A stretch of 32,000 nt of DNA from Rhodobacter capsulatus SB 1003 (GCF_000021865.1 NC_014034.1:690001-722000); one strand, 5' to 3'. Positions 1 to 27,571 are shown, counted from the first letter of the stretch. The notes: generated by a model not told the origin, from the letters alone. Program-made: numbers and translations.

Positions 1-97
1 TGCCCTCCATCAGCAGCGGACGGGCCTGCAGCTCCGCCCCGGCCAATCCGAGGGCAAGCCCGAGCGCGATCAGCGCGGTCCTAGCGGCAAAAGTCAT
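1..97 (-). CDS. 5' end of an exported protein (signal peptide only; gene continues beyond the window start)
   Basis: The reverse complement of 1-97 reads ATG ACT TTT GCC..., giving MTFAARTALIALGLALGLAGAELQARPLLMEG. This has a charged n-region, a hydrophobic core and an AGA/E cleavage-like site. The ATG at 95-97 overlaps the 3' end of the upstream gene (stop 81-83) by 17 nt, so the operon appears to continue. It is too short to appear in the ORF track. Confidence 0.35.
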   Translation of the reverse strand, partial: MTFAARTALIALGLALGLAGAELQARPLLMEG

Positions 98-1193
98 CAA
101 GCGCCCCCCGTGACAAGGTATCTTCCGCCGCGCGCAGCCGCGCGCAGACCGCGGTCAACCGGCCCGCCGCCGCGGCCGAGCCCGCCGCCCGGGCCCGCGA
201 ATAGTAATCGGCCGCCTGGGCGGGGGCATCGGCAAAGCTCAGCCCCAGTTGCGTTTCCACCGTCGGATCGGTGACGGCGGCGTCGTAAAGCGTGCCGAAC
301 AGCAACAGCGCCTCGGCATCGCCCGCCTGCGCCGCGGTCTCGACGAAGATCAGCATCTGGTCGCGCCCCACCCGCTGGCCGCAGGCCCCGGCGGCGCGGG
401 TGATCGCGGTGATGCCGCCCAGCGCGCCCAGCGCCTCGGGCGTGCAGGGATCGGCCTGCCCCGGCGTCGCGGCGGCCGGTTCCGGTGTCGGTGCAGGCGC
501 CGGTTCCGGTGTCGGTCCGGGCGGCGTTTCCGGGGCTGGCGGGGGCTCCACCCCGGCCGAAAACGGCCATTGCTGCTGCAGGTATCGGGAATAACCAAGC
601 CCGAGCAGCGCCGCCAAAACCACCAGCGCCAGCGCGAGCACCAGCCAGAGCCAGCGGCGGCGCCTCGGTTCGGGGGCCGCGATCCCGGCGCTGTCCTGCT
701 CCGTCATCGGCGCGTCGGGCGGCAGCGGCGGCGGCGCGGTCACGCCCGCCTCGGCCTGCCGCAAGGCCGGTTCCGGCCCCTGTGCCGCGCCGGTCCTGCG
801 CGCGACCTGCAGGCCGATGCGCTGCCGGGCCAGATCGAGCGGCTGGATGTCGTTCGGCCAGAACAGATGGCCCTCGACCGGGCCCGCGACGATCCTGACC
901 TGGGTATAGCCCTCGATCTTGTTGACGATTTCCGGGCCGATGGCGATTTCGGCCGCGCCGTCGCGGCGCTGCACCCGGTAGGGGCCGAACAGGTGCCGCC
1001 CGGCCTGCCAGTTCGGCGCGCCAACGGAAATCCCCGCCGGGCCGTCCTGCGCCGAGGGCGCAAGCCAGCGTTCGGAATAGGTTTCGAACACCGAAACCGT
1101 CACCTCGTCGGGCAGCGCCGCGCCGTTTTCGACCCGAAGCAGCGCATGCCCGCCCGCGCCGTGGCCGGGATCGCGCTGAACCGTCAGCGTCAT
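81..1193 (-). CDS. Bitopic membrane protein: cytoplasmic N-domain of unknown fold, one TM helix, Pro-rich spacer, periplasmic Sel1/TPR-like repeats
   Basis: The in-frame ATG at 1191-1193 (residue 46 of tracked ORF 81..1328) forms an ATGA overlap with the srfC-like stop at 1190-1192. The longer tracked start would overlap srfC. RRRRWLWLVLALALVVLAALLGLGY is a positive-inside TM helix, and PPPAPETPPGPTPEPAPAPTPEPAAATP is a spacer. AAQAGDAEALLLFGTLYD...AADYYSRARAAGSAAAAGRL fits the Sel1 repeat pattern. Confidence 0.75.
   Translation of the reverse strand: MTLTVQRDPGHGAGGHALLRVENGAALPDEVTVSVFETYSERWLAPSAQDGPAGISVGAPNWQAGRHLFGPYRVQRRDGAAEIAIGPEIVNKIEGYTQVRIVAGPVEGHLFWPNDIQPLDLARQRIGLQVARRTGAAQGPEPALRQAEAGVTAPPPLPPDAPMTEQDSAGIAAPEPRRRRWLWLVLALALVVLAALLGLGYSRYLQQQWPFSAGVEPPPAPETPPGPTPEPAPAPTPEPAAATPGQADPCTPEALGALGGITAITRAAGACGQRVGRDQMLIFVETAAQAGDAEALLLFGTLYDAAVTDPTVETQLGLSFADAPAQAADYYSRARAAGSAAAAGRLTAVCARLRAAEDTLSRGALDDFCR
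475..522. repeat. Tandem 24-bp direct repeat (2 copies) inside the Pro-rich linker coding region
   Basis: GCCGGTTCCGGTGTCGGT-GCAGGC is followed immediately by GCCGGTTCCGGTGTCGGT-CCGGGC. The 18-nt core is identical. On the minus strand it encodes the duplicated TPEPAPAP/TPEPAAAT segment. Confidence 0.6.
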
Positions 1194-3862
1194 CGCCGCC
1201 CCTCCCGATGCATGCCCTCGAGGATGGCGCCAAGACGCAGGTTCTGTTCGATGTCGATGTCGCCGCCCAGCCCGTCGCGCGCATTCGCATCCATCACCGC
1301 ATCCAGCGCGAAAGCCCAGTCCTCCCACATGTCGCTGGCGGTGGCGCGCGGCGTCGCGGGCAGCCCGGTCACATCATCCTGCCCGGGCCGCCGCGCAAAG
1401 GCGGGACGCGGCGGTCCGACCTCTGGCGTCACCGTCGGACGCGCCGTTTCGGGCAGCGCCGACATGCCCAGCGTGGCGACGAAATCATTGATCATTTCTG
1501 CCGTCAGCACCGCGGCCGTGGGCGCCAGCCGCTCCACCGTCAGGCCGAAATTCAGCTCCGAGAGCCGCTCCGCCATCCGCCCCGACAGCCCGGTCCGGCG
1601 CGCGGCATGGATCAGCTCCGCCACCAGATCGGCGATCGACTGCGGCCGCAGGCCATAGCCGGAGGCCCGCGCCGGATCGTCGCGAAAGGCCTTGATCCCC
1701 TCGATCCAGAGCAGGATCGACTGTTCCGCCTGAAATTCCTCCAGCGTCAGGGTGCGGACCTGCTCGCCGCCGCGTGCCGCCGCCTCCGGCGTGGCGGGCG
1801 CCGGGCCGCCGCCGGGCCGCGCCACCGTGGCGCCGCCCGGTCGCGCCGGGGCCGCCGGACGGACCGGCCCGGCCCCGGCCGAGCCGGTGCTGGCCGCCGC
1901 ACTCACCGCAGAGCCGATGCGGATCGAGCTGGGCACGCGCACGATGTTTTCGGCGATCGCATCCTGATCGACGCCCAGCGCCGAGAGCACCGCGCCGAAG
2001 CGGTGCTGCTGCAGCGCCACCAGCAGATCATCCAGAATCGCGTTGCAGGACTTGCGCTTTTCCTCGATCCGGGTGTGCAGGTCGTCGGCGACGTGATGCG
2101 GCGCAAGTGTCTGCAGCAGATCCTCGACCACCCGTCCCAGCTGCTGCTCGATCTGGCGCAGCTTCTGATCGGGCTTGCACACCCGCGTCAGCGCCTCCAC
2201 CAGATAGCGCACCCCCCCGTCATTGAGCGTCAGCGCCGCATCCCAGGCGCCTTCGGGATCGGCGAAATGGCGCCGCACCGCCGTGGCTTCCAGACAGCCC
2301 TGGCGCAGCTCGGCGATCCGCGCGGCCTTTTCCGGCCGGATCCGCAACTCGCGGCGGTCGTCGTCATAATCGATCAGCCCGTCGACGTAGAAATTCGGAT
2401 TGCGCAGCCAGAAGCAGTTCTGAAACGGCCGGCCCGCGGCCCAGCTGTCCACCCAATTGTCGCTGCCATTCGAGAATTTTTCCAGCAGCGAGGCCTCCAT
2501 GCGGCGCTGGAACCGCGAGGCCTCGCCCCCCGCGGCGGCATTGTCGCCCAGATGCTTGTCGAATTTCGTCAGCACGAAGAACAGGATGCAATCGACCAGC
2601 GCGCGCTGGTCGGGGCGGGCGCCATGGGTGCGCTCGATCCAGGTCGAGACCAGCCGCGGCAGATCCACCGTTTCCATGTTGCTGTCGGGCACGCACAGCA
2701 GCATCGAGGTGATTTCCTGATTTTCGACGTAGCGGTCGAACAGATAGGCGACCTTGCCGCGCAGCAGCAGCCCCGGCAGCGTCTCCGGGTCCTTCAGCGT
2801 GACCTCCAGCGCCTTGTTGAAGCGGTTGCGCGCGCCGGGAAAATCCAGCAGGTCGGTGGTGGCGAACAGCGGATGCGGCACGTCGCGCATCGGCAGCACC
2901 AGTTCCGCCGCCAGCGCGCAGATCCGCGCCCGCGGCAGCTTTGCGCGCAGCCCCGCGCCGGTCAGCACCTCGATCGTCTGCGCGCCCGTCGCCGGGCTCA
3001 GCACATCCGACAGCGTCTTGACGTCAAGGATCGAACTTTCGCGCGGCACCACCGCCTCCAGCCCGACATGGATCTCCTCGGGATGGCCGATCTGCGCCAG
3101 CGAGCCCGCCAGTTCCCGATAGAGCTGCGTCATCGGCGCATGACGGCCCCAGAACACCGACAGGAATTCGGCCCGGTCCTCGGGCGCGAGCAGCGGCGCC
3201 AGCGCCGCGGCCGGGTCGCGGAACGATTTCAGCGCCGCCGCATAGGAACTTTGGCGGGCGAAATTCGTCTCGATGTATTCCGCGATCTCGATCACGTCCT
3301 CGTCGCTCATGCCCGGCAGGGGCTGCGGCTGGCGGCGGGTCTGGAACGTGTCGAGATGGGCGGTCAGATCCGCGGGCTCGGGCGGCGGTTCCGACTTGTC
3401 GCCGTCCATGAAGAAGCTGTTGGCGATCACCCGCGCCAGATCGGCCTCGCTCAGCAGCGACAGCCGGATCGGAAAGCCCGCGGGCACCTCGGGGCGGGTG
3501 CAGGTGAACCGGGTCACAAGCCCGGTGCTTTCGCCTTCGCCTTCCGGGTTCAGCTCGCTGATGTAGTCAAGCCCGGTGGGGCCGAACTGCGCCACGAGGC
3601 GGCCATCGGCGGGCCGGGCCAGAACCGAGACCAGAAAGGACTTGCCCGCCTGCGAGGGGCCGAAGACGCTGACCGACATCGGCGTGCGGGCGGATTTGCC
3701 CAGCCGTTCGGCACGGCGCACCGCGCGGCGCAGGGTGCGCGTCATCGAGCCCTTCTCGGCGCCGACCCGGTCGGCGTTGCTCTGGACGTCAAGCCATCCC
3801 AGCGCCGCACGGCCGAGACCGGCAAGGGTGATGCAACGCTCCGAAATGCTGTCACTGCTCAT
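1190..3862 (-). CDS. srfC: SrfC-family protein ('virulence factor SrfC'), predicted large P-loop GTPase
   Basis: 890-aa ORF. G1/Walker A is VFGPSQAGKSFL (GPSQAGKS = 3638-3661), the G3-like motif is DLLDFPGARN (DFPG = 2834-2845), and the G4 motif is LTKFDK (TKFD = 2558-2569). It has no signal peptide or TM helix. It sits immediately downstream of the SrfB-like gene, as in srfABC loci. The overall sequence pattern is recognised as the SrfC family from memory and has not been searched. Confidence 0.8.
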   Translation of the reverse strand: MSSDSISERCITLAGLGRAALGWLDVQSNADRVGAEKGSMTRTLRRAVRRAERLGKSARTPMSVSVFGPSQAGKSFLVSVLARPADGRLVAQFGPTGLDYISELNPEGEGESTGLVTRFTCTRPEVPAGFPIRLSLLSEADLARVIANSFFMDGDKSEPPPEPADLTAHLDTFQTRRQPQPLPGMSDEDVIEIAEYIETNFARQSSYAAALKSFRDPAAALAPLLAPEDRAEFLSVFWGRHAPMTQLYRELAGSLAQIGHPEEIHVGLEAVVPRESSILDVKTLSDVLSPATGAQTIEVLTGAGLRAKLPRARICALAAELVLPMRDVPHPLFATTDLLDFPGARNRFNKALEVTLKDPETLPGLLLRGKVAYLFDRYVENQEITSMLLCVPDSNMETVDLPRLVSTWIERTHGARPDQRALVDCILFFVLTKFDKHLGDNAAAGGEASRFQRRMEASLLEKFSNGSDNWVDSWAAGRPFQNCFWLRNPNFYVDGLIDYDDDRRELRIRPEKAARIAELRQGCLEATAVRRHFADPEGAWDAALTLNDGGVRYLVEALTRVCKPDQKLRQIEQQLGRVVEDLLQTLAPHHVADDLHTRIEEKRKSCNAILDDLLVALQQHRFGAVLSALGVDQDAIAENIVRVPSSIRIGSAVSAAASTGSAGAGPVRPAAPARPGGATVARPGGGPAPATPEAAARGGEQVRTLTLEEFQAEQSILLWIEGIKAFRDDPARASGYGLRPQSIADLVAELIHAARRTGLSGRMAERLSELNFGLTVERLAPTAAVLTAEMINDFVATLGMSALPETARPTVTPEVGPPRPAFARRPGQDDVTGLPATPRATASDMWEDWAFALDAVMDANARDGLGGDIDIEQNLRLGAILEGMHREGRR

Positions 3863-3871
3863 CTTCTGGCC

Positions 3872-6800
3872 TTAAAACTTGAACACGCCGGTATCGATCC
3901 AGTAGTCATCGGCCGCGCCGAGGGTGTGCAGCTTCAGCACGACCTGATCGCGGCGCACGGTCTGCCCGTCGCCATCCTCGATCTCGCTCACCTCGAAAGC
4001 CTCGCGCGCGGCCTCGCGGCGCAGCGCGGTATCGGGGCGGGTGTCGTCGGGATCGGCGTCGAATTCCGCCCGTTCCAGCGTGACGACCAGCGGCGGCTTG
4101 TGACGCTGCGCCGCCGCATTGGCCAGATCGAGCCGGTAAAGCGGCGTCGTGGTCCAGCGCGGCAGCGGCAGTTGGCGGAACCCCAGATAGATCGGGGTGA
4201 ACATCCGCAGCCGGGCGCTGCCGCCGGTGTCGCGGCCCTGCGGATCAAGCTCGGTGCCGCCAAACAGCACCCGGTCGTCGGGGATCTGCCCCGAGGCGTC
4301 CATCTCGCCGATGAAGACCGCGGTCGAGCGCATCTTGAAGGCGGCGGTGGCGACCTTGAAATTCGGGATCCGCGATTCCGACAGCGCGATCAGCATGCCG
4401 CCCACCGCCACCGTCGATTTCGGATCGCCGATCCGCTGCGAGACCGGATCGCGGAACGGATACCAGCGCCCGGTGCGATAGTCGTTCATCAGGATCAGCC
4501 GATGCGGCGGCACCACCAGCATTTCCTCGAAGATCGTGCGCAGGGCGGGCAGCCGCGACGGCCGCCCGGTCATCAGCACGATATCCACCCCCAGATGGTC
4601 GATCACCTCGGCCAGGTTGCCCAGCGCTTTCTGAAAGGTCTCGCGGGTGATCGCATCGACCTTCTGGCGGTCGCAGTGCAGCACCGTGCCCGCCAGCCGG
4701 AACGTCTCCGCCCCCGAGGCCCGGGCCGGGGTCTCGAGATAGTCGATCAGCGCCGCGGGCAGGCCGCGGGGGCTGTCGTCGGCTGCGCTGTCCTCCTCGG
4801 GGCGGGGGGTCAGGCCCAGCACCGCGTCCAGCGCGATCGTCATCGTGTCGAACTCGCCCGCCCGTTCGCAGGCGCCGATCAGCTCCAGCGCCAGCGGCTG
4901 CAGCACCCGCAGCCCGAACTGGCGCCGCTTTTGCGCCAGCTGCTGGTCCTGGCCGCCGATGTCGCCCGCGAACAGCTCGCGCATCAGGTTCGGCGCGCTT
5001 TTGCCCCCCGCGGCGGTGATGGCGTTTTGCAGCTCGGGCAGGATGATCGAGGCGATCACCCGCTCGACCAGATCGTCGCCCGCGACGCGGAACCCCTCGC
5101 GGAATGTCTGTTCGGGCACCAGCATGCGGTTTTCACGGCAGAAATAGGTCGTCACCATCATGTCGGTGGTGCCGCCGCCAACATCGATGCAGGCCAGCCG
5201 CAGCGAGGGCTCGGGCGGGCGGCCCTTCGCCTGCACCCGCTCGCGTCCCTTCAGCCGCAGGAACCGCTCGATATGGCCGTCGAATTTCTGCGTGATCTCG
5301 GAGTAGAGATAGACCAGCTGGGTGCAGCTCGCCTCGTCCCATTCCTCGGAGACCTCGGGCTTGCGCGACACCGAGCTTTCCGCCCCGGTCAGGCCCAGCA
5401 TCGACCAGATCAGATCGACCGCCCCCTTGGCGCGCGAGCGCATGATCGCCTGTTCCTGGATCGAGGTGGCGGTGGGCAGGGTCAGGATGATCCGGCTCAG
5501 CCGCCGCGGCAGGTCCGATTGCGGCCTGCGCGCCCGGCCCGCGGGGGCGTTCACCTGCACCAGCGCATGGGCGATGATCTCGCTCAGCATGAAGCCGAAC
5601 AGCGACGAGCGGGAAAACCGTGGCCGCCCGGCCGGATCGGTCGAGGTCCGCCCGGGACGGCGCAGCTTGCTGCGTTCCTCCAGCTTGACCTGGGCGATCA
5701 CGTCGCCCGCGGCATTGAGAAACCGCATCGCCGAGCGCGCCGCCCGCGGCAGGTTGTTCGGGTCGGAATGGTTGTGAAAGCGCCAGTCCTGCAGCACCGC
5801 GCTTTCGTCCCACAGATAGCGCTTCGGGCTCGACAGGCCCGAGGCGACCTCGGTGCCCTCGTCCCCGGCCACCAGCCGCAGCGCCTCGGCGCCGATCCGC
5901 ACCGGCGAGGGCCAGATGAACCCGCCGGCGCGATGCGCCCGGCGCAGCTTGGTTTCCTCGATCATGCAGAATTCGGAAAACTCGACCCGGCTTTCGAACA
6001 GGCCCGCGCCGCTCAGCTCCGGCCGCGACAGGTCGCGGATTTCCAGCGGGTAAGAGCGTGCCGGATCCAGCCGGGCCTCGCCGGGGATATGTTCGATCAG
6101 GATGCCGCAGGTGCGCGAATTGCCGATGTCGAGCACCAGATCGACATCGATCGGCGTCACCGCATCATATTCGCCGATCGTGTTGCACAGCCGCAGCAGC
6201 GGAAACCGGATCGCGGTATCGAGCAGACGCAGATAGGCCAGATAGCGCGCCCAATGTTCCAGCCGGTGCGGCAGGTTTTCCGCGGTGATCCGGCGGCCGG
6301 GGCGTTCGGCGCGCTTGTAGGCCAGAAACAGCTCGTCGAGCAGATCCGACACCCAGCCCTGCGGATCGACCTGCTGGCCCGCGGCGTCGGTCTCGACCCG
6401 GCGCAGGAACCAGTCCATCCGCGCCGGATCGGACACGAAGCGGAACTCCCGGCTGTTGAGCGCGTCGCTGCGGTCGGGGGCGGGATAGGAGGCGCCGTCC
6501 TTTTCCGCGCCAAGCGCGGTGTCAAGCGCCAGCTGCACCCGGTGCGTATGCCCGGTTTCGGGGTCGGGCACCGGCAGGCGGACCGTGCGCAGCAGCGCCC
6601 AGGCGGTCGGACCGGGGTCGTAAAGCTCTTCGCCGCCCTCGCCATAGACGCTCTTGCGCCGCAGCACCGGCACCGGCAGCCATCTTTCCAGGAACGGATC
6701 CATCGCCGCCACCGGGCTGACGGAATATTCGTCGTCATCCGCCCGCGCCCCACGCAAAAGCGGCGCATCCAGTTCCTCGTCGCCCGAAAGCGGGATCAGC

Positions 6801-6994
6801 ACCCGCTCCTCCAGACCCGCGGCGATGTCGGGCCGTTCCATCACCCGCTCGATGAAGCGCATCCCGCGCATCTCGATGTCGGACTGGCGAAAGCCGAAAT
6901 CCAGGATCTGCAGCCCGGACCAGGGCACGAGGGTGACCTCGTCGCGCCATTCCGGGACCTTGGCGAGCGGATTTTGACGGTTCAGGCTGCTCAT
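3872..6994 (-). CDS. srfB: SrfB-family protein ('virulence factor SrfB'), Hsp70/actin (ASKHA)-fold ATPase-like
   Basis: The start is the ATG at 6992-6994 (residue 221 of tracked ORF 3872..7654), in an ATGA overlap with the upstream stop at 6991-6993. This gives 1040 aa. The phosphate-1-like motif is VLDIGNSRTCGILIE (DIGNSRT = 6110-6130). The phosphate-2-like motif is ACIDVGGGTTDMMV (DVGGGTTD = 5162-5185). The later LMTGRPSRLP is adenosine-motif-like. Confidence 0.85.
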   Translation of the reverse strand: MSSLNRQNPLAKVPEWRDEVTLVPWSGLQILDFGFRQSDIEMRGMRFIERVMERPDIAAGLEERVLIPLSGDEELDAPLLRGARADDDEYSVSPVAAMDPFLERWLPVPVLRRKSVYGEGGEELYDPGPTAWALLRTVRLPVPDPETGHTHRVQLALDTALGAEKDGASYPAPDRSDALNSREFRFVSDPARMDWFLRRVETDAAGQQVDPQGWVSDLLDELFLAYKRAERPGRRITAENLPHRLEHWARYLAYLRLLDTAIRFPLLRLCNTIGEYDAVTPIDVDLVLDIGNSRTCGILIEHIPGEARLDPARSYPLEIRDLSRPELSGAGLFESRVEFSEFCMIEETKLRRAHRAGGFIWPSPVRIGAEALRLVAGDEGTEVASGLSSPKRYLWDESAVLQDWRFHNHSDPNNLPRAARSAMRFLNAAGDVIAQVKLEERSKLRRPGRTSTDPAGRPRFSRSSLFGFMLSEIIAHALVQVNAPAGRARRPQSDLPRRLSRIILTLPTATSIQEQAIMRSRAKGAVDLIWSMLGLTGAESSVSRKPEVSEEWDEASCTQLVYLYSEITQKFDGHIERFLRLKGRERVQAKGRPPEPSLRLACIDVGGGTTDMMVTTYFCRENRMLVPEQTFREGFRVAGDDLVERVIASIILPELQNAITAAGGKSAPNLMRELFAGDIGGQDQQLAQKRRQFGLRVLQPLALELIGACERAGEFDTMTIALDAVLGLTPRPEEDSAADDSPRGLPAALIDYLETPARASGAETFRLAGTVLHCDRQKVDAITRETFQKALGNLAEVIDHLGVDIVLMTGRPSRLPALRTIFEEMLVVPPHRLILMNDYRTGRWYPFRDPVSQRIGDPKSTVAVGGMLIALSESRIPNFKVATAAFKMRSTAVFIGEMDASGQIPDDRVLFGGTELDPQGRDTGGSARLRMFTPIYLGFRQLPLPRWTTTPLYRLDLANAAAQRHKPPLVVTLERAEFDADPDDTRPDTALRREAAREAFEVSEIEDGDGQTVRRDQVVLKLHTLGAADDYWIDTGVFKF

Positions 6995-8307
6995 CTGGAA
7001 ATCTCGAACTCCGTGCTCCACCGTTTTTCCCGGCCGCGGAAGGTGCCTTCGCGACGCTGCTCGGGCGTTCCCGCCCGGCGCAGCACCACCCCGAAGGACA
7101 GATCGCCCCGGGGGGGCACGTCTGTCAGCCGCGCGACCTGAACCCGGTAGCGTCCCGGAACGGGGGTGTTGAAATGAATGTTCTCGACCGGGTCCTCGAC
7201 CGCGATCAGGGCGGGATAATTCGCATCGACATCCAGCAGCCCGCCACAATCGTTGGGCCTGCGCTGCAGGTCCGCGATCTGCCCCGAGGGGCAGCTGACC
7301 CGAAGATCGACATCGTCCCTGCCGCTCCAGACCAGCGAGATCGTCATCGCGCCCGCCGCGGCCCCGCGCGCCTGCAGCCGCCGGTCCAGATCGGCGATCT
7401 CGCTCTCCGGGGCTGCCGGGGCCTCGGCGCGTTTGCGGGCGTTCAGGCACATCCGTTCGGACAGGGCAAGCCGGTCGGTCAGCTGCGCGATCTCGGCACG
7501 CAGGGCCTCGGCTTGCAGCGCGGGCGCCGTCGCCGCGGCAGGCGCCGGGCAAAAGCCAAGGAAGCCCGGGCGCAGACCGCAGGGCGCGATCAGCAGCCAA
7601 AGCACCGCCGCGATCAGCGCCGCCACGAGCAGCCAGCCCAGAAGCACAAGCCAATGCCCCCAGGGGCGCGGCGTTTCGGGCGGCGGCGGTGCGGCCAGCC
7701 AGTGGGTTTCGGCCGCGGGAAAGGCGGGGGCGGGCAGGGCGGTGGCCGCCATGGCCGCCGCCGCCGCGGGGGGGCGACGGTTCGGCGCCAGCACCGAAAG
7801 CGCCCCGCGCGCGGCGCGCGTGGTATCAAGCAGGCGGCCCCAGTTCACCAGGATCGGGCGCAGACTGCCATCATCCTGACGCAGCGCCCAGATCGCGTCC
7901 TGATCCGGAACTTCGATCGCATTGCGCAGCGCCTCGGCCAGCCAGTAATTGTCGGCGCTGCTCTGCGCCCCGGTCGGCGGCCCGGCCTGCGCCCCGTTCT
8001 GGGCGCTGATCTGATCGGCCAGCGCCAGGATCCGGCCGTGGATCGCCGCCAGCCGGGCGCGGATCTCCTCGGCCTCCGGCCCGGAGAGCGCGGCCAGCGG
8101 CACCGGCCTGCCGGAACAGCCCGGCGGCACATACCATTCGATCCGCGCCCCGCCATGGGTCGAGACCGGCTCGGCGAAGATCGCGGCATGATCGCGGTCG
8201 AGGCGGTCGCAGAGCGTGCCGGTGATCAGCTCCCAGGAGCGCTGGGCGGCAGAGCCGAGCGCCTGCAGGCCTTCCGAGGAGGTGGTGGTGATCAACCCGT
8301 CCGACAT
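6991..8307 (-). CDS. SrfA-position bitopic membrane protein: cytoplasmic N-module, one TM, periplasmic coiled-coil plus DUF2135/YfaP-like beta-sandwich
   Basis: 438-aa ORF with a GGGGAG Shine-Dalgarno sequence upstream of the ATG at 8307. There is no signal peptide (it begins MSDGLITTTSSEG). The TM helix is WGHWLVLLGWLLVAALIAAVLWLLIA (about residues 217-241). The C-terminal MTISLVWSGRDDVDLRVSCPSGQ...GGLLDVDANY...PVENIHFNTPVPGRYRVQV resembles the DUF2135 pattern. The position directly upstream of srfB matches srfA, but assignment to the SrfA family is an inference. Confidence 0.7.
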   Translation of the reverse strand: MSDGLITTTSSEGLQALGSAAQRSWELITGTLCDRLDRDHAAIFAEPVSTHGGARIEWYVPPGCSGRPVPLAALSGPEAEEIRARLAAIHGRILALADQISAQNGAQAGPPTGAQSSADNYWLAEALRNAIEVPDQDAIWALRQDDGSLRPILVNWGRLLDTTRAARGALSVLAPNRRPPAAAAAMAATALPAPAFPAAETHWLAAPPPPETPRPWGHWLVLLGWLLVAALIAAVLWLLIAPCGLRPGFLGFCPAPAAATAPALQAEALRAEIAQLTDRLALSERMCLNARKRAEAPAAPESEIADLDRRLQARGAAAGAMTISLVWSGRDDVDLRVSCPSGQIADLQRRPNDCGGLLDVDANYPALIAVEDPVENIHFNTPVPGRYRVQVARLTDVPPRGDLSFGVVLRRAGTPEQRREGTFRGREKRWSTEFEISR

Positions 8308-8314
8308 CCGCCGC

Positions 8315-10087
8315 TCACTCCCCGCCCGGGCCGGGCGTTGCCGGGACCGTGCCGTCCGGGGCTCCGGCCGGTGCCCCGGGTGCGGGCGCGGCGGGGGCGG
8401 GGGCCGGGGCGGGGGTCGGGGCGGGCGTCGCCGAAGCGGGCGCCACCGTCGGTTGGCAGCTGGCGCGGTCCGGCGTCACGGCGGCGGGGGTTCCGGCCAG
8501 AAACTCGGCCAGACCCGCGGCCGAAAGCGCGAAATTCAGCGTGCGCAGCGGGCCTTGCCGGACGAAGGTGTTCACCCCGAGAACCCGGCCGCAGAAATCC
8601 ACCAAGGGCCCGCCGGAATTGCCCTGCGCCAGCGGCGCCGAATGCAGCAGCGTCTCGGTCGCGCCCTGCAGCGGCTGTTCCGCATTCACCGTGCCATCGA
8701 CGACGACGAGCCCGGGCATCGCCGCGCCATCGCCGCGCAGCAGCGCCTCATAGGCGGCGTCGGTCTCCATCACATCGCCCGGGAAGCCCGCGGCCACGAC
8801 GTGATTGAGCTTGAGCGAGGCGGCCGGATCGGCCAGCGGCAGCGCGGGCAGCGCGGTCGAACCGATCTTCAGCAGCGCGAAATCGGCCCCCACGGCCTCC
8901 AGCGGACCGGCGGTCTTGAGCACCTGCGCCGGTTGCGGCTGCCCCAGCAGCTTGTTCACCACGAAGGCGCCCTCGGGCCCGAGATCCTCGATCACATGCT
9001 GGTTGGTGACGATCAGCCCCGGCCCGACGGCAAAGCCCGACCCGGTCGAGACGCCCTGCGCCCCGGGGGCGATCACCAGCACGGTGGCCGCCTCGATCCG
9101 CGCCAGCAGAGTGTCGGTTTCCGCGGGGGCGCCGGGGGCGGCGGGCAGCAGCGCGCGCTCGGGCGCGGGGGCGACCGGGGAATCGGGCGCCACCTGCCCC
9201 TGTTCGGGCGCCGCGCCGGGCGCCGGAAGCGACAGGCCCTCGGGCGTGCGGTTCCCGGGCAGCACCAGAACGCCATCCTCGCGGCATTGCGCCCCCGCAA
9301 GCGCCTGCCGCAGCGCATCGCGGCGGTCGCGCAGCGCGCCCAGTTCGGTTTCCTGCGCCGCCGAGACATCGGCATCGCGGACCACGCTTTGCGGCGGGAA
9401 CACCCGGGTTCCGGGCAGCAACAGCCAGATCAGCACGAGGCAGAGCAGAACCAGCAGGATCGGCAGCGGCAGCCAGGCCGCCAGCGGCAGCACCGGGCGC
9501 GTCGCGGCGGGCGGCAGCCCCGCCGACATGGCCGGACCCGGCTGCGCGGCATCGGGGATCGGCGGCGGCACCGTCGCGGGCCCCGGCGCCGCCGCGGCAG
9601 GCCCGGCCGCCGCGGCATCGCCGCGCATGAACCCGGCCAGCGCGGGCGCCCCGCCGCGCGGGCGGACGCCCCAGTTCACCAGCACCGGAACGCCGTTGAT
9701 CGCCCGCACGTCGGCCGCCTGCGACAGCGAAAGCGCCGCCCGCACCAGCGCCGCCAGATCCGGCGTCAGCCCCGGATCGGTGGCCAGCGCCTCGATCTTC
9801 GGCAAGAGCCGCAGCAGCCGATCCTCGACCGCGCGGCGCAGCGCCGGGTCCAGATCGGCCAGCGGCCGGGCCTCGCCCGCATGCACCGAATGCCAGGCGA
9901 CGTTCAGCGCCGCACCCGCCGCGCCGCGGCTGACGAAGGGCTCGGCGAAGAGCTCCGCCGCCTCCGCGCCCAGCCGGGCGGTGAGCAGCTCGTGCAGCGC
10001 GGCATGGCGTTCCAGCACCGGCTGCCCGGCGACGGAAAGGCAGTCCTCGGCTTGCAGCGACGACCGGAAAAGGAAATGCTCGGCCAT
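8315..10087 (-). CDS. Fusion protein: SrfA-like cytoplasmic N-module, one TM, periplasmic coiled-coil, trypsin-like (S1/DegP-type, no PDZ) serine protease, Pro/Ala-rich tail
   Basis: 590-aa ORF. The N-module shares LFAEP...W...PL and P[IV]LVNWG blocks with the 438-aa protein. The TM helix is VLPLAAWLPLPILLVLLCLVLIWLLL. The catalytic triad motifs are intact: IVTNQHVI (His364, 8996-8998), GADFALLKI (Asp402, 8882-8884) and GNSGGPLVD (Ser491, 8615-8617). The start ATG at 10085-10087 overlaps the upstream TAA by 1 nt. Confidence 0.8.
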   Translation of the reverse strand: MAEHFLFRSSLQAEDCLSVAGQPVLERHAALHELLTARLGAEAAELFAEPFVSRGAAGAALNVAWHSVHAGEARPLADLDPALRRAVEDRLLRLLPKIEALATDPGLTPDLAALVRAALSLSQAADVRAINGVPVLVNWGVRPRGGAPALAGFMRGDAAAAGPAAAAPGPATVPPPIPDAAQPGPAMSAGLPPAATRPVLPLAAWLPLPILLVLLCLVLIWLLLPGTRVFPPQSVVRDADVSAAQETELGALRDRRDALRQALAGAQCREDGVLVLPGNRTPEGLSLPAPGAAPEQGQVAPDSPVAPAPERALLPAAPGAPAETDTLLARIEAATVLVIAPGAQGVSTGSGFAVGPGLIVTNQHVIEDLGPEGAFVVNKLLGQPQPAQVLKTAGPLEAVGADFALLKIGSTALPALPLADPAASLKLNHVVAAGFPGDVMETDAAYEALLRGDGAAMPGLVVVDGTVNAEQPLQGATETLLHSAPLAQGNSGGPLVDFCGRVLGVNTFVRQGPLRTLNFALSAAGLAEFLAGTPAAVTPDRASCQPTVAPASATPAPTPAPAPAPAAPAPGAPAGAPDGTVPATPGPGGE

Positions 10088-10803
10088 TACGGCGCCTCCT
10101 GCGTTCTGCGCATGATCACCTCTGAGCTGCTGCCGCTTTCGGGTTGGAACGAGGAACAGCTGGCCCGCTCGGCGCCATCGACCCGACAGGTCACCCGGCG
10201 CTGCAGGATTTCCATGTCGTTCGAACAGGGCAGATTGGCGGCCTCCTCGATCACCAGCGCCTGCCCCGGGACGAAGCTGCCGCTGACCGGCCCCTCGCAG
10301 CGGATGCCGTTCGAGCCCCGCATCGTCTCGGTGCCATTGCCCCCGGCGTCAAAGCACACTGTCCATTCCGAAAATTCGGTGATCTCGCCGGTGGCGCGGT
10401 TTTGCGTGCGATAGGGGCTGTCAAGCGCCCAGCAGCCCTGCAGATCGCCCAGATCGGCCTTGTCGATCATGTCCTTGTCCAGCACCGGCGGCGGGTCGGG
10501 CTCCGGTTCCGGCGCCGGTTCCGGCAGCGGCTCGGGGGCGGGCAGGGGCGCTGCGACGGGCGCGGGACAGTCAAGCCCCGCAAGCCGGGCCTCGAGGCTG
10601 CGGATCTCGGCGCGCAGCGCCGCGCTTGCGACGCGGTCCTCGGCCAGCGGATCTTGCAGGATCGTGCCCGGACAGCTGCCAAGCCGCAGGCTGCCGAAGG
10701 GCAGCGCGACCTCGCAGGAGGGAAGCAGCAGCGCCGCCGTTGCGGCCGAGACCGCAAGAAGGGCCGCGCCCCCTACCCAGATCGAGACGATACGCATCGA
10801 CAC
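10087..10803 (-). CDS. Small N-terminally anchored or exported protein with coiled-coil segment, PEP-repeat spacer and Cys-rich C-terminal domain
   Basis: 238-aa ORF starting at GTG 10803, or alternatively at ATG 10797. The N-terminus MSMRIVSIWVGGAALLAVSAATAALLLPSC is a signal anchor or signal peptide, and LPSC is a weak lipobox. It contains ALRAEIRSLEARLAGLDC, then PAPEPLPEPAPEPEPDPPP, then about 120 residues with 6 Cys. I recognise no known family. Confidence 0.6.
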   Translation of the reverse strand: MSMRIVSIWVGGAALLAVSAATAALLLPSCEVALPFGSLRLGSCPGTILQDPLAEDRVASAALRAEIRSLEARLAGLDCPAPVAAPLPAPEPLPEPAPEPEPDPPPVLDKDMIDKADLGDLQGCWALDSPYRTQNRATGEITEFSEWTVCFDAGGNGTETMRGSNGIRCEGPVSGSFVPGQALVIEEAANLPCSNDMEILQRRVTCRVDGAERASCSSFQPESGSSSEVIMRRTQEAP

Positions 10804-10853
10804 GGAACACCCCGCTGCGCCGACGCAAGCGCCGGCATGCCGCCTGTTGCCAC

Positions 10854-12128
10854 TCAGTTGGCGGTGATCGCCTTCGACAGGATCGCCGTGCGTTCCGCCG
10901 TCTGGTTCGGCAGAACCGCCGGGGCGGCGCCACTTGTCACGGCGTCCAGCGCAAACCGGATCCAGGCGCGGGAGGCCTCGGGATTGGCGGTGAAGCCGAA
11001 GCCCTCGCGCAGGTGATGGCCCAGCAGCTCGGCATAGGGTTTCATCTCCGCCGCCGCGAGCGTGGCCAGCGCCACATTCGCCATCGCCGCATCATCGGTG
11101 CGATAGCCCTCGGCGAGGCAGACCCGGCCCGAGACCTGGGTCGCGCTCAGCGTCTTGCCGGAGGCGTCGATCACCTTGCGGATGTCGGCCAGTGTCGCCT
11201 CGGGCGGGCGGGCGGCGGGATCGGCCAGCTTCGCCGAAAGCGCGGTCTTCATCTGGCCGCAAAGCGAGGTGATCAGCGCCTGCGTCGCCCCGACATCCTT
11301 GGCGACCTTTTCGCCATCGGCGGTGGCGAAGGTGCGGGCGAGGCAGAATTGCTCGTCCAGCGCAAGGCCGGGGTTCGGCATCTGCTCGGCCGTGGCCATG
11401 CCGCCATTGCTGGTGGTCAGGACATTGGTCTGGTTGCACAGGTTGTTCATCGAGGCCGCGGGCGGCGACAGATCGCCGAAATCCGGGATCGAATCCTGCG
11501 CGGTGATCGCGGCGGCGGCGGCGGCCGGAGCGGCCACCGGCGGCACCGGAGCGGGCGCGGGCGTTGCGGGCAGCTGCGGCTGGGCATAGGGCGTCGCGGG
11601 GGCCTGCGGATAGGGCGGCATCGGCGTCGGATAGGGGGCGGCGGGGGCCATCGGCGTGCGCTGATACATCGCCGGAAGGCCGCGCCGCCCATAGGGATTG
11701 GCCGCGGCCAGCTGCGCCGCCTCGGCGGGGTTGAGCCGTTCGCGCGCCATCGCATCTTGCAGCAGGGCGCGCTGATCGGCGGTGATCACCCCGTCCTGCA
11801 TCCGCCCGAGCGTGCCCTGAAAGGCCGCGATCGCCGCACGGGTGCGCTTGCCGGGGGAACCATCGACCGGACCGGCGTCGAAGCCGAAATTGTTCAGCGC
11901 CTGCTGCATGTCCTTGTCCGCCTGAACCTCGGCGGCGGGGCGCGCGGGGGCCGCCTTGCGCGGGGTGCGGTGCTGGCGCGGCGGAGGATTGTTCTGCGCG
12001 GCGCCCGCGATCATGGCGCCGATCACCAGACCGGCAAGGCCCGCCCCGAGATCGTCGGCGGCCGAGGCCTGCGGCGCAAGCGCCAGAGAAACTGCCAGGC
12101 CGACATTCAAGAACGATTGTCTCTTCAT
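10854..12128 (-). CDS. Secreted protein with peptidoglycan-binding (PG_binding_1-like) domain, Pro-rich region and unknown Cys-containing C-terminal domain
   Basis: The start is the ATG at 12126-12128 (residue 11 of tracked ORF), preceded by GAGGAAAG. The signal peptide is MKRQSFLNVGLAVSLALAPQASA. MQQALNNFGFDAGPVDGSPGKRTRAAIAAFQGTLG...GVITADQRALL fits the PG-binding repeat pattern. It is the first gene of the minus-strand operon. Confidence 0.75.
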   Translation of the reverse strand: MKRQSFLNVGLAVSLALAPQASAADDLGAGLAGLVIGAMIAGAAQNNPPPRQHRTPRKAAPARPAAEVQADKDMQQALNNFGFDAGPVDGSPGKRTRAAIAAFQGTLGRMQDGVITADQRALLQDAMARERLNPAEAAQLAAANPYGRRGLPAMYQRTPMAPAAPYPTPMPPYPQAPATPYAQPQLPATPAPAPVPPVAAPAAAAAAITAQDSIPDFGDLSPPAASMNNLCNQTNVLTTSNGGMATAEQMPNPGLALDEQFCLARTFATADGEKVAKDVGATQALITSLCGQMKTALSAKLADPAARPPEATLADIRKVIDASGKTLSATQVSGRVCLAEGYRTDDAAMANVALATLAAAEMKPYAELLGHHLREGFGFTANPEASRAWIRFALDAVTSGAAPAVLPNQTAERTAILSKAITAN

Positions 12129-12300
12129 TCTTTCCTCGCCGAAATCGTGTGGTTGCAACCGGATATTAATCCCGGTCGCAGGTCATTCATTTTTCGAAAA
12201 CGCACGCCAAAACTGGCGTTTTACAAAAGATATACAGGCAAAGGGATTCGTGTAAACGGAAAAGGCAAACCGTTTCCGGTTTGCGTTGCGCGTGTTTTAA
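12129..12300 (-). promoter_or_regulatory. AT-enriched leader/promoter region of the srf-type operon with short inverted repeats
   Basis: GC content drops visibly relative to the flanks. Inverted repeats present are ACGCCA-aaac-TGGCGT and AAACGG-N10-CCGTTT. A TAATAT -10-like hexamer lies on the minus strand. No convincing -35 element was identified. Confidence 0.3.
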
Positions 12301-12383
12301 CCGACTGTCGCCCGCGCAAAGCGCGCGCCCTCCGCCGCGTGAAACAAGGCCCGAAACCGGCGTTGCCGCAAGGCGTCCGAAGC

Positions 12384-12407
12384 GGCCGCCCGGACGTCCG
12401 GGCGGCC
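12384..12407 (-). terminator. GC-rich perfect hairpin just downstream of the GGDEF-EAL gene stop
   Basis: GGCCGCCCGGA-CG-TCCGGGCGGCC forms an 11-bp stem beginning 4 nt after the stop at 12411-12413. No clear U-tract follows, so function as an intrinsic terminator is uncertain. Confidence 0.45.
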
Positions 12408-12410
12408 TGC

Positions 12411-15221
12411 TCAGGGACGCGCCAGCAGCGCCGCATCGGGGTTCGGCACATGTCCGGGCTCGCAGCCGAAAAACCGCGCCTCGAAGGCGGATTGCGGCAG
12501 CGGCCTTTCGAACAGATAGCCCTGCCCGTAATCGCAGCCCAGCTCGATCAGGGTTTGCAGCGCGGCCTCGGATTCGATCCCCTCGGCCAGCGCGACAAAA
12601 CCGAATTTCTTCGCCAGACCGATGATCGCCTCGACGATCTGGCGGGCGTCGCCATCGGCCTCGATGCCGCGCACGAAACTGGCGTCGATCTTCAGCGTCG
12701 TCACCGGCATCCGGCGCAGATAGGTCAGGCTGGAATAGCCGGTGCCGAAATCATCGATCGCCAGCGCGATTCCCATCTTGCGCAGGCGCTGCAGCGCCTC
12801 CATCGCGCCCGGGATGTCGACGGCCAGCTGATCCTCGGTCAGTTCGATCTGCAGCCCGAAGGGCGGCGCGACATCGTCCGAAGTCTTCCAGCCCACCCGC
12901 ACCAGCGCCGCATCAAGCACCTCGGCCCAGTCCTGCGCCGCAAGGCTGGAGGCGGTCTGGTTGATCGACAAGGTCCAGTCGGCATGCACCAGCCCCGCCC
13001 AGCGCCAGCGCGCCTGCACCGCCACCGCCCGGCGCAGCACCATCCGGTCGATCGCGGGCATCAGCCCGGCCTTGGCGGCCACCGGCAGAAACGCGCCCGG
13101 CATCACCAGCCCATGCCCGGGCCGGTTCCAGCGCACCAGCGCCTCGCAGCCGCGCGGGCGCTTGTCATCCAGCGCGAAGATCGGCTGGAAATGCAGCTCG
13201 AATTCGTCATTTTCCAGCGCGCTGACCAGCGCCACCCGGGTTTCCAGTTCGCGCAGCGCCTCCGCCCCCATCGAGGGCTCGTAGATCATCACCGCCCGGC
13301 GGTCGGATTTCGCCGCATACATCGCCAGATCGGAATTGCGCAGCAGCGCGTCGCGGCTGTCGCCATGGCGGCCATAGCAGGCAATCCCCGCCGCGGCCGA
13401 GGGCCGGTAATTGTGCAGCCCCGGCAGATCGAGCGGCCGCGCCAGATGGTCCAGCAATTCCGCCGCCCGTCGCAGCGCCGCCGCCTCGTCGGCATTGCCG
13501 ATCAGCACCACGAATTCGTCGCCGCCGATCCGCGCCGCCAGCTCGCCCTCGGTCAGCGCGGCGCGCAGCCGGTCGGCGATCACCGTCAAAAGCAGATCCC
13601 CGGTCTCGTGGCCAAGCGAGTCGTTCACCGACTTGAACTTGTTCAGATCCAGATACATCAGCGCGAAACTTTGCCCCGCGCGCGAGGCGAAGCCGATCCA
13701 GTCGTCGATCCGCTCGGCCAGCAGGCGGCGGTTGGCAAGGCCGGTCAGCTGGTCGAACTGCGCCATGCGCTGGTTGTCGGCCTGGGTCTGGCGCAAAAGC
13801 GTCAGATCGGCCAGCATCGCCACATGGCCCAGATTGACCCCCGCCGCATCGGTCAGCCGGGTGATCCGCGCCCAGCAGGTCAGCTGGCGGTCGTCCTTTC
13901 CGTGCAGCGTCACCTCGCCCTGCCAGCTGCCCTCGGCGCGCGCAAGCACCTGACGCAGCCAGGAGTCGGTCTCGGACATCCCCGCCATGATCCAGCGCGT
14001 GCCGGAGCGCGGCGTCACCAGCGCATCCAGCAGCAGCGCCGGGGTGGCGCCGGGGGCGATGCCGCTCATGCGTTCAAAGGCCGGATTGGTCCGCATCACC
14101 CGCAGCCCCGGATCGGTGATCACGATCGCATCCGAAGATTGCTCGAAGACCCGGTCGGCCAGCCGTTCCACCTCGCGGGTGCGCAATTCCTCGGTGACGT
14201 CGCGGGCCCGGGTGAAGACGCCGATCACCGCGCCGTCGTCGTCGAAGACCGGGCGGCGCTCGGTCAGCAGATGCGCCGGGCGCGGCGTGCCGGGAGGGCC
14301 GTCATGGGGCCGGGTCGGACGCAGCACCGATTCCTCGACGATCAGCGCCGTGCGCCGCGCGATCACCCCGGCCTCCAGCCCGTTCAGATGCCGCGCCAGC
14401 TGCTCGTCCATGAATTGCGACCGCCGCCGCCCCTCGATCTCGGCGGGGATGCGGCCGAAGGGCTGGGCATAGGCCTTGTTGGCGATCACCACCCGGCCCT
14501 CGGTATCTGTCAGCGCCACCGGGTCGATCGTGCTTTCGATCAGAAGCCGCAACAATTCGGGATTGCCCGCAGAGGTGCCGGTTTCGATCGGCAGCAAGAC
14601 CAGCCACCAGCTCGCCCGTTCGGCCTCGGGCGTGTCGGGCGCGGCGACGACATGGGCGTGAAAGCTGTGCCGCGGCCCGTCCGCGCGCCCGATCCGCAGC
14701 CGCAGCGCCACCGCGGGGGCCCGGCTCGCGGCGTCGGGGGGCAGGAAGGCCGCATCCAGCGCCTGGGTCAGCGCCCGCGCCTGGCTGCGCGACAGCACCG
14801 CCCGCAATACGCCCGAGCGCTCGCCGGTGCCGCCATCGCCCAGCAGCGCCCGCGCCGCCGCATTCGCATCGAGGACGCGCAGCCCATGGGTCAGCCGCAG
14901 CACCGGCACCGGCAGCCGGCGCAGCAATTCGCCCGGCAGATGCACCTGTTCGGCCGGATGGTGCAGCGCAAGCTCCAGCGCCGCCGCCTGTTCCGCGCAA
15001 CTCACCCGCAGCCGGTCGAGCGCCGCGCGCAGCTCGGCCTGCGCCGCCTCGGAGGGCGTCGCCGCCTGCTGCGCCAGCGCCGCTTCCAGCGCCCGCAGGC
15101 GGGTCTCGATCTCGGCCATGGGGTCGTTGACGCTCTCGGGCGCCTTCGGAGGCGGACCGGCGGCAGGCAAAAGGGCGGCCAACGGATCCGCGGCGGGGGA
15201 TGAAGGGGGCTTCCAATTCAT
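12411..15221 (-). CDS. PAS/PAC-GGDEF-EAL c-di-GMP turnover protein
   Basis: The start is the ATG at 15219-15221 (residue 53 of tracked ORF), preceded by GAGGAG. This gives 936 aa. The N-terminus is coiled-coil (AEIETRLRALEAALAQQ) and is followed by PAS-like repeats. The GGDEF motif is RIGGDEFVVLI. EAL motifs are CEALVRW, DDFGTGYSSLTYL and EGIESE...GQGYLF. Confidence 0.85.
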   Translation of the reverse strand: MNWKPPSSPAADPLAALLPAAGPPPKAPESVNDPMAEIETRLRALEAALAQQAATPSEAAQAELRAALDRLRVSCAEQAAALELALHHPAEQVHLPGELLRRLPVPVLRLTHGLRVLDANAAARALLGDGGTGERSGVLRAVLSRSQARALTQALDAAFLPPDAASRAPAVALRLRIGRADGPRHSFHAHVVAAPDTPEAERASWWLVLLPIETGTSAGNPELLRLLIESTIDPVALTDTEGRVVIANKAYAQPFGRIPAEIEGRRRSQFMDEQLARHLNGLEAGVIARRTALIVEESVLRPTRPHDGPPGTPRPAHLLTERRPVFDDDGAVIGVFTRARDVTEELRTREVERLADRVFEQSSDAIVITDPGLRVMRTNPAFERMSGIAPGATPALLLDALVTPRSGTRWIMAGMSETDSWLRQVLARAEGSWQGEVTLHGKDDRQLTCWARITRLTDAAGVNLGHVAMLADLTLLRQTQADNQRMAQFDQLTGLANRRLLAERIDDWIGFASRAGQSFALMYLDLNKFKSVNDSLGHETGDLLLTVIADRLRAALTEGELAARIGGDEFVVLIGNADEAAALRRAAELLDHLARPLDLPGLHNYRPSAAAGIACYGRHGDSRDALLRNSDLAMYAAKSDRRAVMIYEPSMGAEALRELETRVALVSALENDEFELHFQPIFALDDKRPRGCEALVRWNRPGHGLVMPGAFLPVAAKAGLMPAIDRMVLRRAVAVQARWRWAGLVHADWTLSINQTASSLAAQDWAEVLDAALVRVGWKTSDDVAPPFGLQIELTEDQLAVDIPGAMEALQRLRKMGIALAIDDFGTGYSSLTYLRRMPVTTLKIDASFVRGIEADGDARQIVEAIIGLAKKFGFVALAEGIESEAALQTLIELGCDYGQGYLFERPLPQSAFEARFFGCEPGHVPNPDAALLARP

Positions 15222-15512
15222 GAAAGGACGCTCCTCGGGCGTCGGCAAAAGCGAGTCGGGTGGATATCTTTGTTCGCCATGAACGGTGAACCGCGACCAT
15301 CTGTCAACTTGGCAGTTTTCGAACGCAAGCGGCGGCTCGCGCAAAAGATGTGCAGAAGGGCTTCTGAAAATCCGCAAAAGGCCGGGTTTCGTCGCATTTT
15401 AGCGAAGAATACCTGGTGTTCCGACCTTGCGGGGCATCGGGGCGGGGCGGGATTCGCAAAGCCTTAGGAAAGCCGCGGCACGCTCGCCTTGGTTGCAAAT
15501 GGGTGCCTTCAG

Positions 15513-27508: not shown

Positions 27509-27519
27509 CTGGTCCGTCT

Positions 27520-27571
27520 CCTTGCGGGTCTTGCCGTCGATCTCGCCGCGCTGCCTTGCGCCAGCCTTACG
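27520..27571. promoter_or_regulatory. Four CTTGC/CTTAC-type direct repeats in the divergent eptA / response-regulator intergenic region
   Basis: CCTTGCG (27520-27526), CTTGCCG (27530-27536), CCTTGCG (27554-27560) and CCTTACG (27565-27571). The second pair is phased at 11 bp start to start, as expected for OmpR/PhoB-family tandem binding sites. Confidence 0.35.

Follow-up and report, generated by a model that had tools for sequence, protein, structure and literature searches.

We analyzed a 32,000-nucleotide stretch of the Rhodobacter capsulatus SB 1003 genome (NC_014034.1:690001-722000; ~70% GC), referred to below as the window and numbered from its first nucleotide, whose first 12.2 kb are filled by an Srf gene cluster on the minus strand. 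The srfABC genes are widespread, being found on hypervirulence-type Klebsiella plasmids, in Salmonella, Yersinia, and Pseudomonas, and in many environmental Proteobacteria, and to our knowledge no mechanism has been accepted for them. In the R. capsulatus cluster, the order of transcription is a gene for a PG_binding_1 protein, then p238, p590, p438, srfB, srfC, and p370, all on the minus strand. The two genes of main concern here are p590 (8315-10087, an open reading frame [ORF] of 590 aa) and p438 (6991-8307, 438 aa), both on the minus strand and exactly matching the span that an earlier sequence-only reading of the window had given for the pair (6991-10087). Both lie upstream of srfB-srfC, a placement kept in ~40 loci, and the genes are tightly packed: the stop codon of p238 and the start codon of p590 share TAATG, p590 and p438 are 7 nt apart, and the p438 stop overlaps the srfB start in ATGA, as does the srfC stop with the p370 start.

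The N-terminal part of each protein forms a module, which we refer to as the B-type handle in p590 (9653-10087, minus strand; residues 1-145) and the A-type handle in p438 (7822-8307, minus strand; residues 1-162). The sequence-only reading had aligned these modules block by block. At the level of single sequences their likeness is marginal (BLASTP: 22.7 bits, E = 0.032, and 26% identity over 130 residues). A Smith-Waterman alignment of the two N-terminal regions (residues 1-170 versus 1-150) scored 66, a value reached by none of 2,000 composition-preserving shuffles (0/2000; mean 33.3 ± 5.8, z = 5.7). Ortholog families of p438 and p590 were then compared as profiles, using 43 and 40 sequences, respectively, gathered from 41 related genome loci. 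The hhalign comparison gave a probability of 98.9% (E = 1.8e-17 over 138 columns) and recovered the same three blocks that had been listed from the sequence, namely FAEP, PL..L with its helix, and P(V/I)LVNWG. Hidden Markov model (HMM) searches across the two families were reciprocal, at 25-55 bits versus 160-250 bits within each family, and the invariant alignment columns are E46, P47, W58, L86, P151, and W156. The shuffle control together with the profile-profile comparison excludes chance or low-complexity similarity.

The predicted folds agree with the alignment. In the AlphaFold2 (AF2) models, the predicted local distance difference test score (pLDDT) of the p438 module is mostly 80-97, and residues 1-165 of p590 have a pLDDT of 90.1 with a predicted template modeling score (pTM) of 0.84. 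Both modules show the element order beta-beta-alpha-alpha-beta-beta-beta-alpha-alpha-beta-beta, and the secondary-structure state is the same at 110 of the 138 aligned positions (80%) between the independent models. Sequence profiles and modeled folds thus confirm that the N-modules of p438 and p590 (~150 residues) are homologous.

Both modules match the N-terminal half of the NCBIfam model SrfA_fam (NF040486), p438 at positions 4-227 (E = 3.9e-13) and p590 at positions 3-273 (E = 9.1e-7), in line with the SrfA-like label that they had been given from the sequence. Neither protein matches positions 285-423, which correspond to the lipocalin-like SrfA-C. Since they lack SrfA-C and score far under the family cut-off, p438 and p590 are SrfA-N-domain paralogs rather than members of the SrfA family as NCBIfam defines it. 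Canonical SrfA proteins of Klebsiella and Rahnella scored 37.7 and 51.1 bits with the A-type HMM versus 15.5 and 28.9 bits with the B-type HMM, and by this measure the A-type handle is the closer of the two to canonical SrfA-N.

In a Foldseek search, the N-module of p590 drew kinases as leading, non-significant matches (OspG, CDK4/6, Abl, PknA, and NleH; E = 0.23-3, TM-scores of 0.3-0.37), and a preprint has claimed a kinase-like fold for SrfA-N, with no ATP binding in AlphaFold 3 (AF3) (10.64898/2026.09.18.752743). The best matches being kinases of minimal type (OspG and NleH, for example), and the handle being kept while the heads vary, one could picture the N-module as an autonomous cytoplasmic sensor or pseudokinase that binds a small ligand or nucleotide and controls its own periplasmic head across the membrane, much like one-component transmembrane signaling, with SrfB and SrfC acting in parallel instead of serving as docking partners. 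We consider this highly improbable, given that the catalytic Lys, HRD, and DFG kinase motifs are absent from the alignments of either N-module family, in which no Lys or Asp is invariant, that ATP binding was not seen in the preprint's AF3 work (10.64898/2026.09.18.752743), and that linkage to srfB is strict, with a start/stop overlap.

Behind the handle, the two proteins follow the same plan. In p590, the SrfA-N-type module (1-145) is followed by a Pro/Ala linker, a transmembrane (TM) segment (~204-226), a juxtamembrane helix (~240-270) ending in a conserved Cys, a protease domain (~326-540), and a Pro/Ala-rich tail. The corresponding parts of p438 are the module (1-162), a disordered linker (165-212), a TM helix (216-240), a Cys-bracketed juxtamembrane helix (260-295), and a beta-sandwich (319-438); the AF2 model of p438 shows the linker as disordered, then the TM helix, then the long helix. 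Hydropathy analysis found a single strong hydrophobic segment in each protein (~204-226 in p590 and ~218-242 in p438, with peaks of 3.03 and 2.78), in agreement with the single TM helix read earlier from the sequence. We infer an N-in/C-out topology for p590 and p438, because their ~200-residue N-domains have no signal peptide, their heads contain Cys and belong to extracytoplasmic domain types, and the N-side TM flanks are rich in Arg in the homologs Klebsiella SrfA and Rhizobium 421.

The head of p590 (8468-9112, minus strand) had been read as an S1 protease, and Pfam Trypsin_2 indeed matches residues 349-505 (E = 3.5e-19). The catalytic triad is H364 (in TNQH), D402 (DFALL), and S491 (GNSGGP), and of 40 orthologs, drawn from 40 loci, at least 80% retain these motifs. 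The nearest solved relatives are HtrA2, HtrA1, DegP-like proteases, and MarP (3k6y), with E values from 1.5e-9 (HtrA2) to 1e-5. No PDZ family was found in p590 by a Pfam scan at E ≤ 0.1, and beyond residue 540 there is only the Pro/Ala-rich tail. The NCBIfam HtrA-type models score p590 far under their cut-offs; for the MarP family (NF033740) the score is 49.7 bits against a cut-off of 250, and p590 has a single TM segment rather than the four-TM anchor. Judged by the conservation of its triad, the p590 head is predicted to be a catalytically intact, PDZ-less HtrA-like serine protease. It shares with HtrA, DegP, DegS, and MarP (Rv3671c) the trypsin fold and the triad motifs TNxHV, D(F/I)ALL, and GNSGGP, and, on the inferred topology, it would share with DegS and MarP the tethering of an extracytoplasmic protease to the inner membrane. 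It differs from the HtrA family in having no PDZ domain and in being encoded within an NTPase operon. Whereas MarP is anchored by four TM helices and DegS by a short anchor, p590 has one TM segment that follows a ~200-residue SrfA-N handle and linker.

The head of p438 (6994-7353, minus strand), which we call the C438 domain, had been described as a beta-sandwich of DUF2135-like type. The fold stands, AF2 giving an eight-strand beta-sandwich at residues 321-436 (pLDDT ~80-94), and the family assignment does not: the isolated head has no Pfam match at E ≤ 10, and direct DUF2135 membership is rejected. Foldseek returned weak beta-sandwich matches (DUF4425 and MmpS5; E ~6e-3), and the profile of the head family gave weak matches to the C-terminal domains of the subtilases 5fax (E = 0.018) and 1wmd (E = 0.093). 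The motifs of the head, L.W...DDLDL.V.CP.G, LDVDAN, DPVENI, and G.Y.V.V, define a family outside current models. A repeat of the same domain in a giant protein, P0056, coincides with Pfam P_proprotein (E = 1.8e-8) and PPC (E = 7e-6), as well as with a sub-threshold match to DUF2135 (PF09906; E = 4.9e-4) that reaches 20.6 bits against a gathering value of 22 and covers model positions 1-22 of 48. Because the P0056 repeat coincides with P_proprotein and PPC, the p438 head is, on these profile matches, best described as P-domain/PPC-like, with "DUF2135-like" expressing at most a remote resemblance. It resembles the P-domain, PPC (pre-peptidase C-terminal), and DUF2135 modules in size and in being all-beta, and homologous repeats elsewhere are recognized by P_proprotein and PPC; it differs from them in that the p438 head itself has no Pfam match. 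We consider it probably a binding module. The domain also occurs in 3-13 tandem copies in the giant proteins P0056, P0098, P0111, P0148, and P0177 (up to 2505 aa), three of which contain C-type lectin domains, with N-terminal zinc ribbons in two of those three. It is a mobile, probably extracytoplasmic, module with no dedicated Pfam model.

Directly upstream of p590 lies p238 (10087-10803, minus strand; 238 aa), which has orthologs in 41 sources. It consists of an N-terminal TM anchor, a Cys-bracketed juxtamembrane helix, a Pro-rich linker, and a canonical lipocalin-like SrfA-C, with no N-module, and it matches SrfA_fam at positions 285-423, the C-terminal half of the model (E = 2.1e-11). In profile comparisons, the TM/helix segment of p238 aligned with that of p438 at a probability of 96.4% (E = 1.1e-9) and with that of p590 at 93.1% (E = 3.3e-7), which points to a homologous TM/juxtamembrane segment common to the three proteins. 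The juxtamembrane cysteines are C243, C253, and C287 in p438, C269 in p590, and C29, C43, and C78 in p238. Since p238 holds SrfA-C and the homologous anchor without the N-module, SrfA is represented here by three genes. The parts of the usual single-gene SrfA are spread over p238, an anchor that has the canonical head and no handle, and over p590 and p438, anchors that each join a handle to a foreign head.

Comparison with canonical SrfA (NF040486; Salmonella STM1593 and Klebsiella WP_048985037.1) makes the relationship clearer. Both forms have the SrfA-N module, a disordered linker, and a single TM segment with a juxtamembrane Cys, both stand directly upstream of srfB-srfC, and both share the same downstream cassette. 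Canonical SrfA comes from a single gene and ends in a lipocalin-like head, whereas in R. capsulatus the handle is duplicated, each copy carries a foreign head, and SrfA-C resides on a separate anchor without a handle. The preprint describes SrfA-C as lipocalin-like and argues from its conserved Cys pairs for a periplasmic location (10.64898/2026.09.18.752743).

The genes downstream encode the putative cytoplasmic partners. SrfB (3872-6994, minus strand, with its true start at 6994; 1040 aa) matches Pfam PF07520 (SrfB) with 1153 bits and contains the ASKHA-type phosphate motifs DIGNSRT (aa 295) and DVGGGTTD (aa 609), so it is likely an ASKHA (actin/Hsp70-like) ATPase. SrfC (1190-3862, minus strand; 890 aa) matches PF10139 (Virul_Fac) with 1076 bits and is predicted to be a P-loop NTPase from its Walker A motif, GPSQAGKS, at aa 68-75. 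Neither SrfB nor SrfC had a meaningful match in the PDB by sequence, nor a detectable solved homolog, and it is from these motifs that both are read as NTPases. Literature searches on SrfB with vWA and on SrfC with dynamin turned up no relevant work other than the 2026 preprint.

Taken together, we favor the view, with a probability of roughly 60%, that p438 and p590 are paralogous SrfA-derived bitopic inner-membrane adaptors that couple cytoplasmic NTPases to a periplasmic protease and a periplasmic binding module. Each would have kept three parts of SrfA, namely the handle at the N terminus (a non-catalytic alpha/beta module with a remote likeness to kinases), the single TM segment, and the juxtamembrane helix, and the canonical lipocalin-like head would have been swapped for a protease in p590 and a beta-sandwich in p438, with SrfA-C surviving on p238. 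Within the inner membrane, the three anchors may come together by way of their TM and Cys-bracketed helix segments, which are homologous, and the cytoplasmic handles of p438 and p590 would dock onto SrfB and SrfC, by analogy with the AF3 model of the preprint, in which canonical SrfA-N sits on SrfB, followed by SrfC (10.64898/2026.09.18.752743). This arrangement could couple NTPase cycles in the cytoplasm to periplasmic proteolysis and ligand binding, or it could relay events in the periplasm inward; we infer both the hetero-assembly of the anchors and the direction of coupling. Further players might be the downstream bitopic protein, a vWA protein, a MacB/Lol-like ABC transporter, and an FGE/SUMF1-domain protein.

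Several observations weigh against this adaptor view. Over their whole length the two proteins score 49.6 (p438) and 28.6 (p590) bits with SrfA_fam, far under its curated cut-off of 150. The TM/helix segments of p438 and p590 match each other weakly (39%), and profile scores are prone to inflation by TM segments. Around the TM segment, the positive-inside rule gives a weak bias, with 2.1 versus 1.6 Lys plus Arg in the p590 family and 1.2 versus 1.0 in the p438 family. The kinase-like fold assignment of the handle is without statistical significance (Foldseek E = 0.2-3, TM-score ~0.35). Finally, published experiments place SrfABC in another functional context, that of a toxin (PMC6950479).

The order p238-p590-p438-srfB-srfC-p370 was found in essentially all of the ~40 Rhodobacteraceae/Paracoccaceae loci that extend far enough, and also on a Cereibacter azotoformans plasmid and in a metagenome-assembled genome (MAG) of an unclassified member of the Pseudomonadota. 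In this MAG, the second adaptor (P0188) has a vWA domain ahead of the beta-sandwich. Partial contigs from a distant metagenomic lineage carry protease-type and p438-type genes followed by srfB. The p438 ortholog has no head in Ruegeria, Tropicibacter, Cribrihabitans, Sedimentitalea sp., and others (loci L023-L029, L031-L036, L038, and L042 of our set), where it is ~270-330 aa long and consists of the handle, TM segment, and helix. On Rhizobium leguminosarum pRL10, an A-type and B-type pair also lies upstream of srfB; the A-type protein keeps the beta-sandwich, and the B-type protein (L047:6769-7698; 309 aa) is without the protease head. Because of these headless variants, the periplasmic heads appear to be dispensable in some lineages.

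In a neighbor-joining tree, all B-type (protease-type) handles, including the 309-aa Rhizobium protein, fall into one clade with 96% bootstrap support. Because this clade takes in the Rhizobium protein, the handle duplication appears, from the tree, to be older than the split between Rhizobiales and Rhodobacterales. So old a duplication, with a separate B-type clade that already includes Rhizobium, raises the question of whether the homologous N-modules have come to serve different partners in separate sub-complexes. The A-type handle, encoded beside srfB and closest to canonical SrfA-N, might, for example, bind SrfB, and the older, divergent B-type handle might bind SrfC, the downstream bitopic protein, or a partner from outside the operon. 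The families are only ~27% identical, few positions are invariant across both (E46, P47, W58, P151, and W156), and the HMM scores across families are low (25-55 versus 160-250 bits), all of which would fit such a division. The shared motifs FAEP, W, and P.LVNW and the common predicted fold fit a retained common function instead, as do the strict positions of both genes in the same operon, and we regard separate partners as unlikely.

The design of a common handle with a variable head, as proposed from the sequence, is well supported and broader than had been claimed. The N-module plus TM segment was found with the lipocalin-like SrfA-C, the trypsin-like protease, the P-domain-like beta-sandwich, vWA plus beta-sandwich, a TerD-like head, or no head, and the p590 and p438 types hold fixed positions upstream of srfB in ~40 genomes. 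The TerD-like example is WP_048985035.1, a "tellurite resistance domain protein" encoded on the Klebsiella pneumoniae plasmid NZ_CP045662.1 (L048:6337-7482) directly upstream of canonical srfA. It has an SrfA-N-like module (E = 8.6e-11 with the B-type HMM and 7.7e-7 with the A-type HMM), one TM segment, and a beta-rich head, which is TerD-like by eye and by annotation and has no Pfam match; its handle falls outside the B-type clade of the neighbor-joining tree. Like the R. capsulatus proteins, it has another SrfA-N protein and srfB as neighbors; it differs in its TerD-like head and in that its SrfA-N neighbor is of the canonical lipocalin type. A srfB homolog is present on 114 Klebsiella plasmids, and the upstream gene was examined on one of them, NZ_CP045662.1.

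An exhaustive HMMER search retrieved 7,887 proteins at E ≤ 1e-3, and the p438 architecture occurred in 125 of the best 150 clusters at 50% identity. The search profile kept 437 positions, spanning full-length p438 rather than the N-module only, and because the best 150 clusters are therefore biased toward the p438 architecture, the census of heads is qualitative. Word-indexed homolog searches gave 6 hits (p590 N-terminal part) and 16 hits (N-module alignment) and were not usable for this purpose. For p438, we found 33 full-length homologs, the closest being a hypothetical protein of R. capsulatus SP108 with 84% identity.

The p370 gene (81-1193, minus strand; 370 aa when counted from its likely true start, an ATG at 1193 that overlaps the stop codon of srfC) has orthologs in 39 loci with an Srf cluster as well as in Klebsiella and Rhizobium. 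Its product is a bitopic protein with a predicted layout of a cytoplasmic beta-rich domain, a TM segment with RRRR on its N side, and a periplasmic Cys-containing helical domain with a faint Sel1 match. As a 415-aa ORF, p370 was considered as a third SrfA-N paralog and rejected, its SrfA_fam match (E = 0.003) being limited to the TM/linker region; compared with both N-module families, it gave hhalign probabilities under 1% and Smith-Waterman scores no better than shuffles, and it is not SrfA-N-like. At the head of the cluster, the protein with a peptidoglycan (PG)-binding domain (10854-12158, minus strand; PG_binding_1, E = 3.5e-10) has an N-terminal signal-like segment. Only 5 of 44 sources, R. 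capsulatus among them, yielded a homolog, and a PG-binding-domain protein is annotated at the same position on the Cereibacter plasmid; it is a lineage-specific accessory. Downstream, a cassette of a bitopic protein, a vWA protein, an ABC ATPase with its permease, and a SUMF1/FGE protein is common to the three-anchor locus of Cereibacter and the canonical single-SrfA locus of Klebsiella. PADLOC assigned none of the Srf components to a defense system, returning only a generic protease-domain match and a weak match to PD-T4-6 (E = 6.6e-4) on the gene downstream of srfC.

These accessories also bear on the toxin proposals made for SrfABC of Xenorhabdus, Haemophilus, and Salmonella, according to which the SrfA-type proteins would be components or cargo of a tripartite toxin released in membrane vesicles, with the protease and beta-sandwich as toxic and target-binding moieties acting on another cell. 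Cytotoxic and insecticidal activity has been reported for the SrfABC of X. stockiae (PMC6950479), export in vesicles is argued for in the preprint (10.64898/2026.09.18.752743), and giant proteins that are probably exposed at the surface combine tandem copies of the beta-sandwich with C-type lectin domains. For the R. capsulatus form, we nevertheless find export as a toxin improbable: the bacteria with the three-gene form are free-living phototrophs and marine members of the Roseobacter group, the three proteins are each bitopic and have a large N-domain lacking a signal, their partners are large cytoplasmic NTPases, and the accessories in the cluster are of envelope type (the PG-binding protein, the MacB/Lol-like ABC transporter, and vWA).

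The duplication of the handle, its swappable heads (an intact protease among them), and the placing of the canonical head on a separate anchor recast SrfA as an adaptor family rather than a single "effector". The preprint makes no mention in its main text of proteases, paralogs, TerD, or alternative SrfA-N architectures (10.64898/2026.09.18.752743). Our findings suggest a modular membrane-spanning Srf machine with swappable heads, and we put forward, as a tentative extension that we hold to be less likely than not, that Srf could be an unrecognized class of NTPase-driven trans-envelope machine rather than a secreted tripartite toxin, in which interchangeable SrfA-N handles plug varied periplasmic effectors (protease, binding beta-sandwich, lipocalin, vWA, or TerD-like) into one cytoplasmic motor of SrfB (actin/Hsp70-like) and SrfC (P-loop). 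If so, such a machine might serve envelope surveillance, defense, or remodeling, and in the three-anchor form of the Rhodobacterales nature would have supplied an "exploded" view from which the logic of the subunits can be read. A natural three-subunit version offers material for dissecting the Srf machine, and the findings also assign to this adaptor family some partners that have been mis-annotated, the Klebsiella "tellurite resistance domain protein" being an example.

The window also contains long plus-strand ORFs, at 1208-7141, 7174-8808, 8216-10414, and 10626-15203, which were rejected as genes; their translations (up to 1977 aa) are rich in Arg, Gly, and Pro and have no family matches, and given the 70% GC content, the long antisense ORFs are artifacts.

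The rest of the window encodes PAS-GGDEF-EAL proteins, a NIT-MCP chemoreceptor, Kdo transferases, an EptA-like protein, a histidine kinase, and an ABC1 kinase, and appears to be unrelated to the Srf cluster. Between 12411 and 21662, PAS-GGDEF-EAL proteins (988 and 1245 aa, minus strand) lie on both sides of the NIT-HAMP-MCP chemoreceptor (15489-17906, plus strand), and R. capsulatus SP108 has the same PAS-GGDEF-EAL and chemoreceptor neighbors. Further along, at 22720-25370 and 25841-27976 (both minus strand), tandem Kdo-transferase (Glycos_transf_N) paralogs with overlapping ends adjoin a phosphoethanolamine transferase of EptA/EptB type, and together these genes look like a small cluster for modification of the lipopolysaccharide core.

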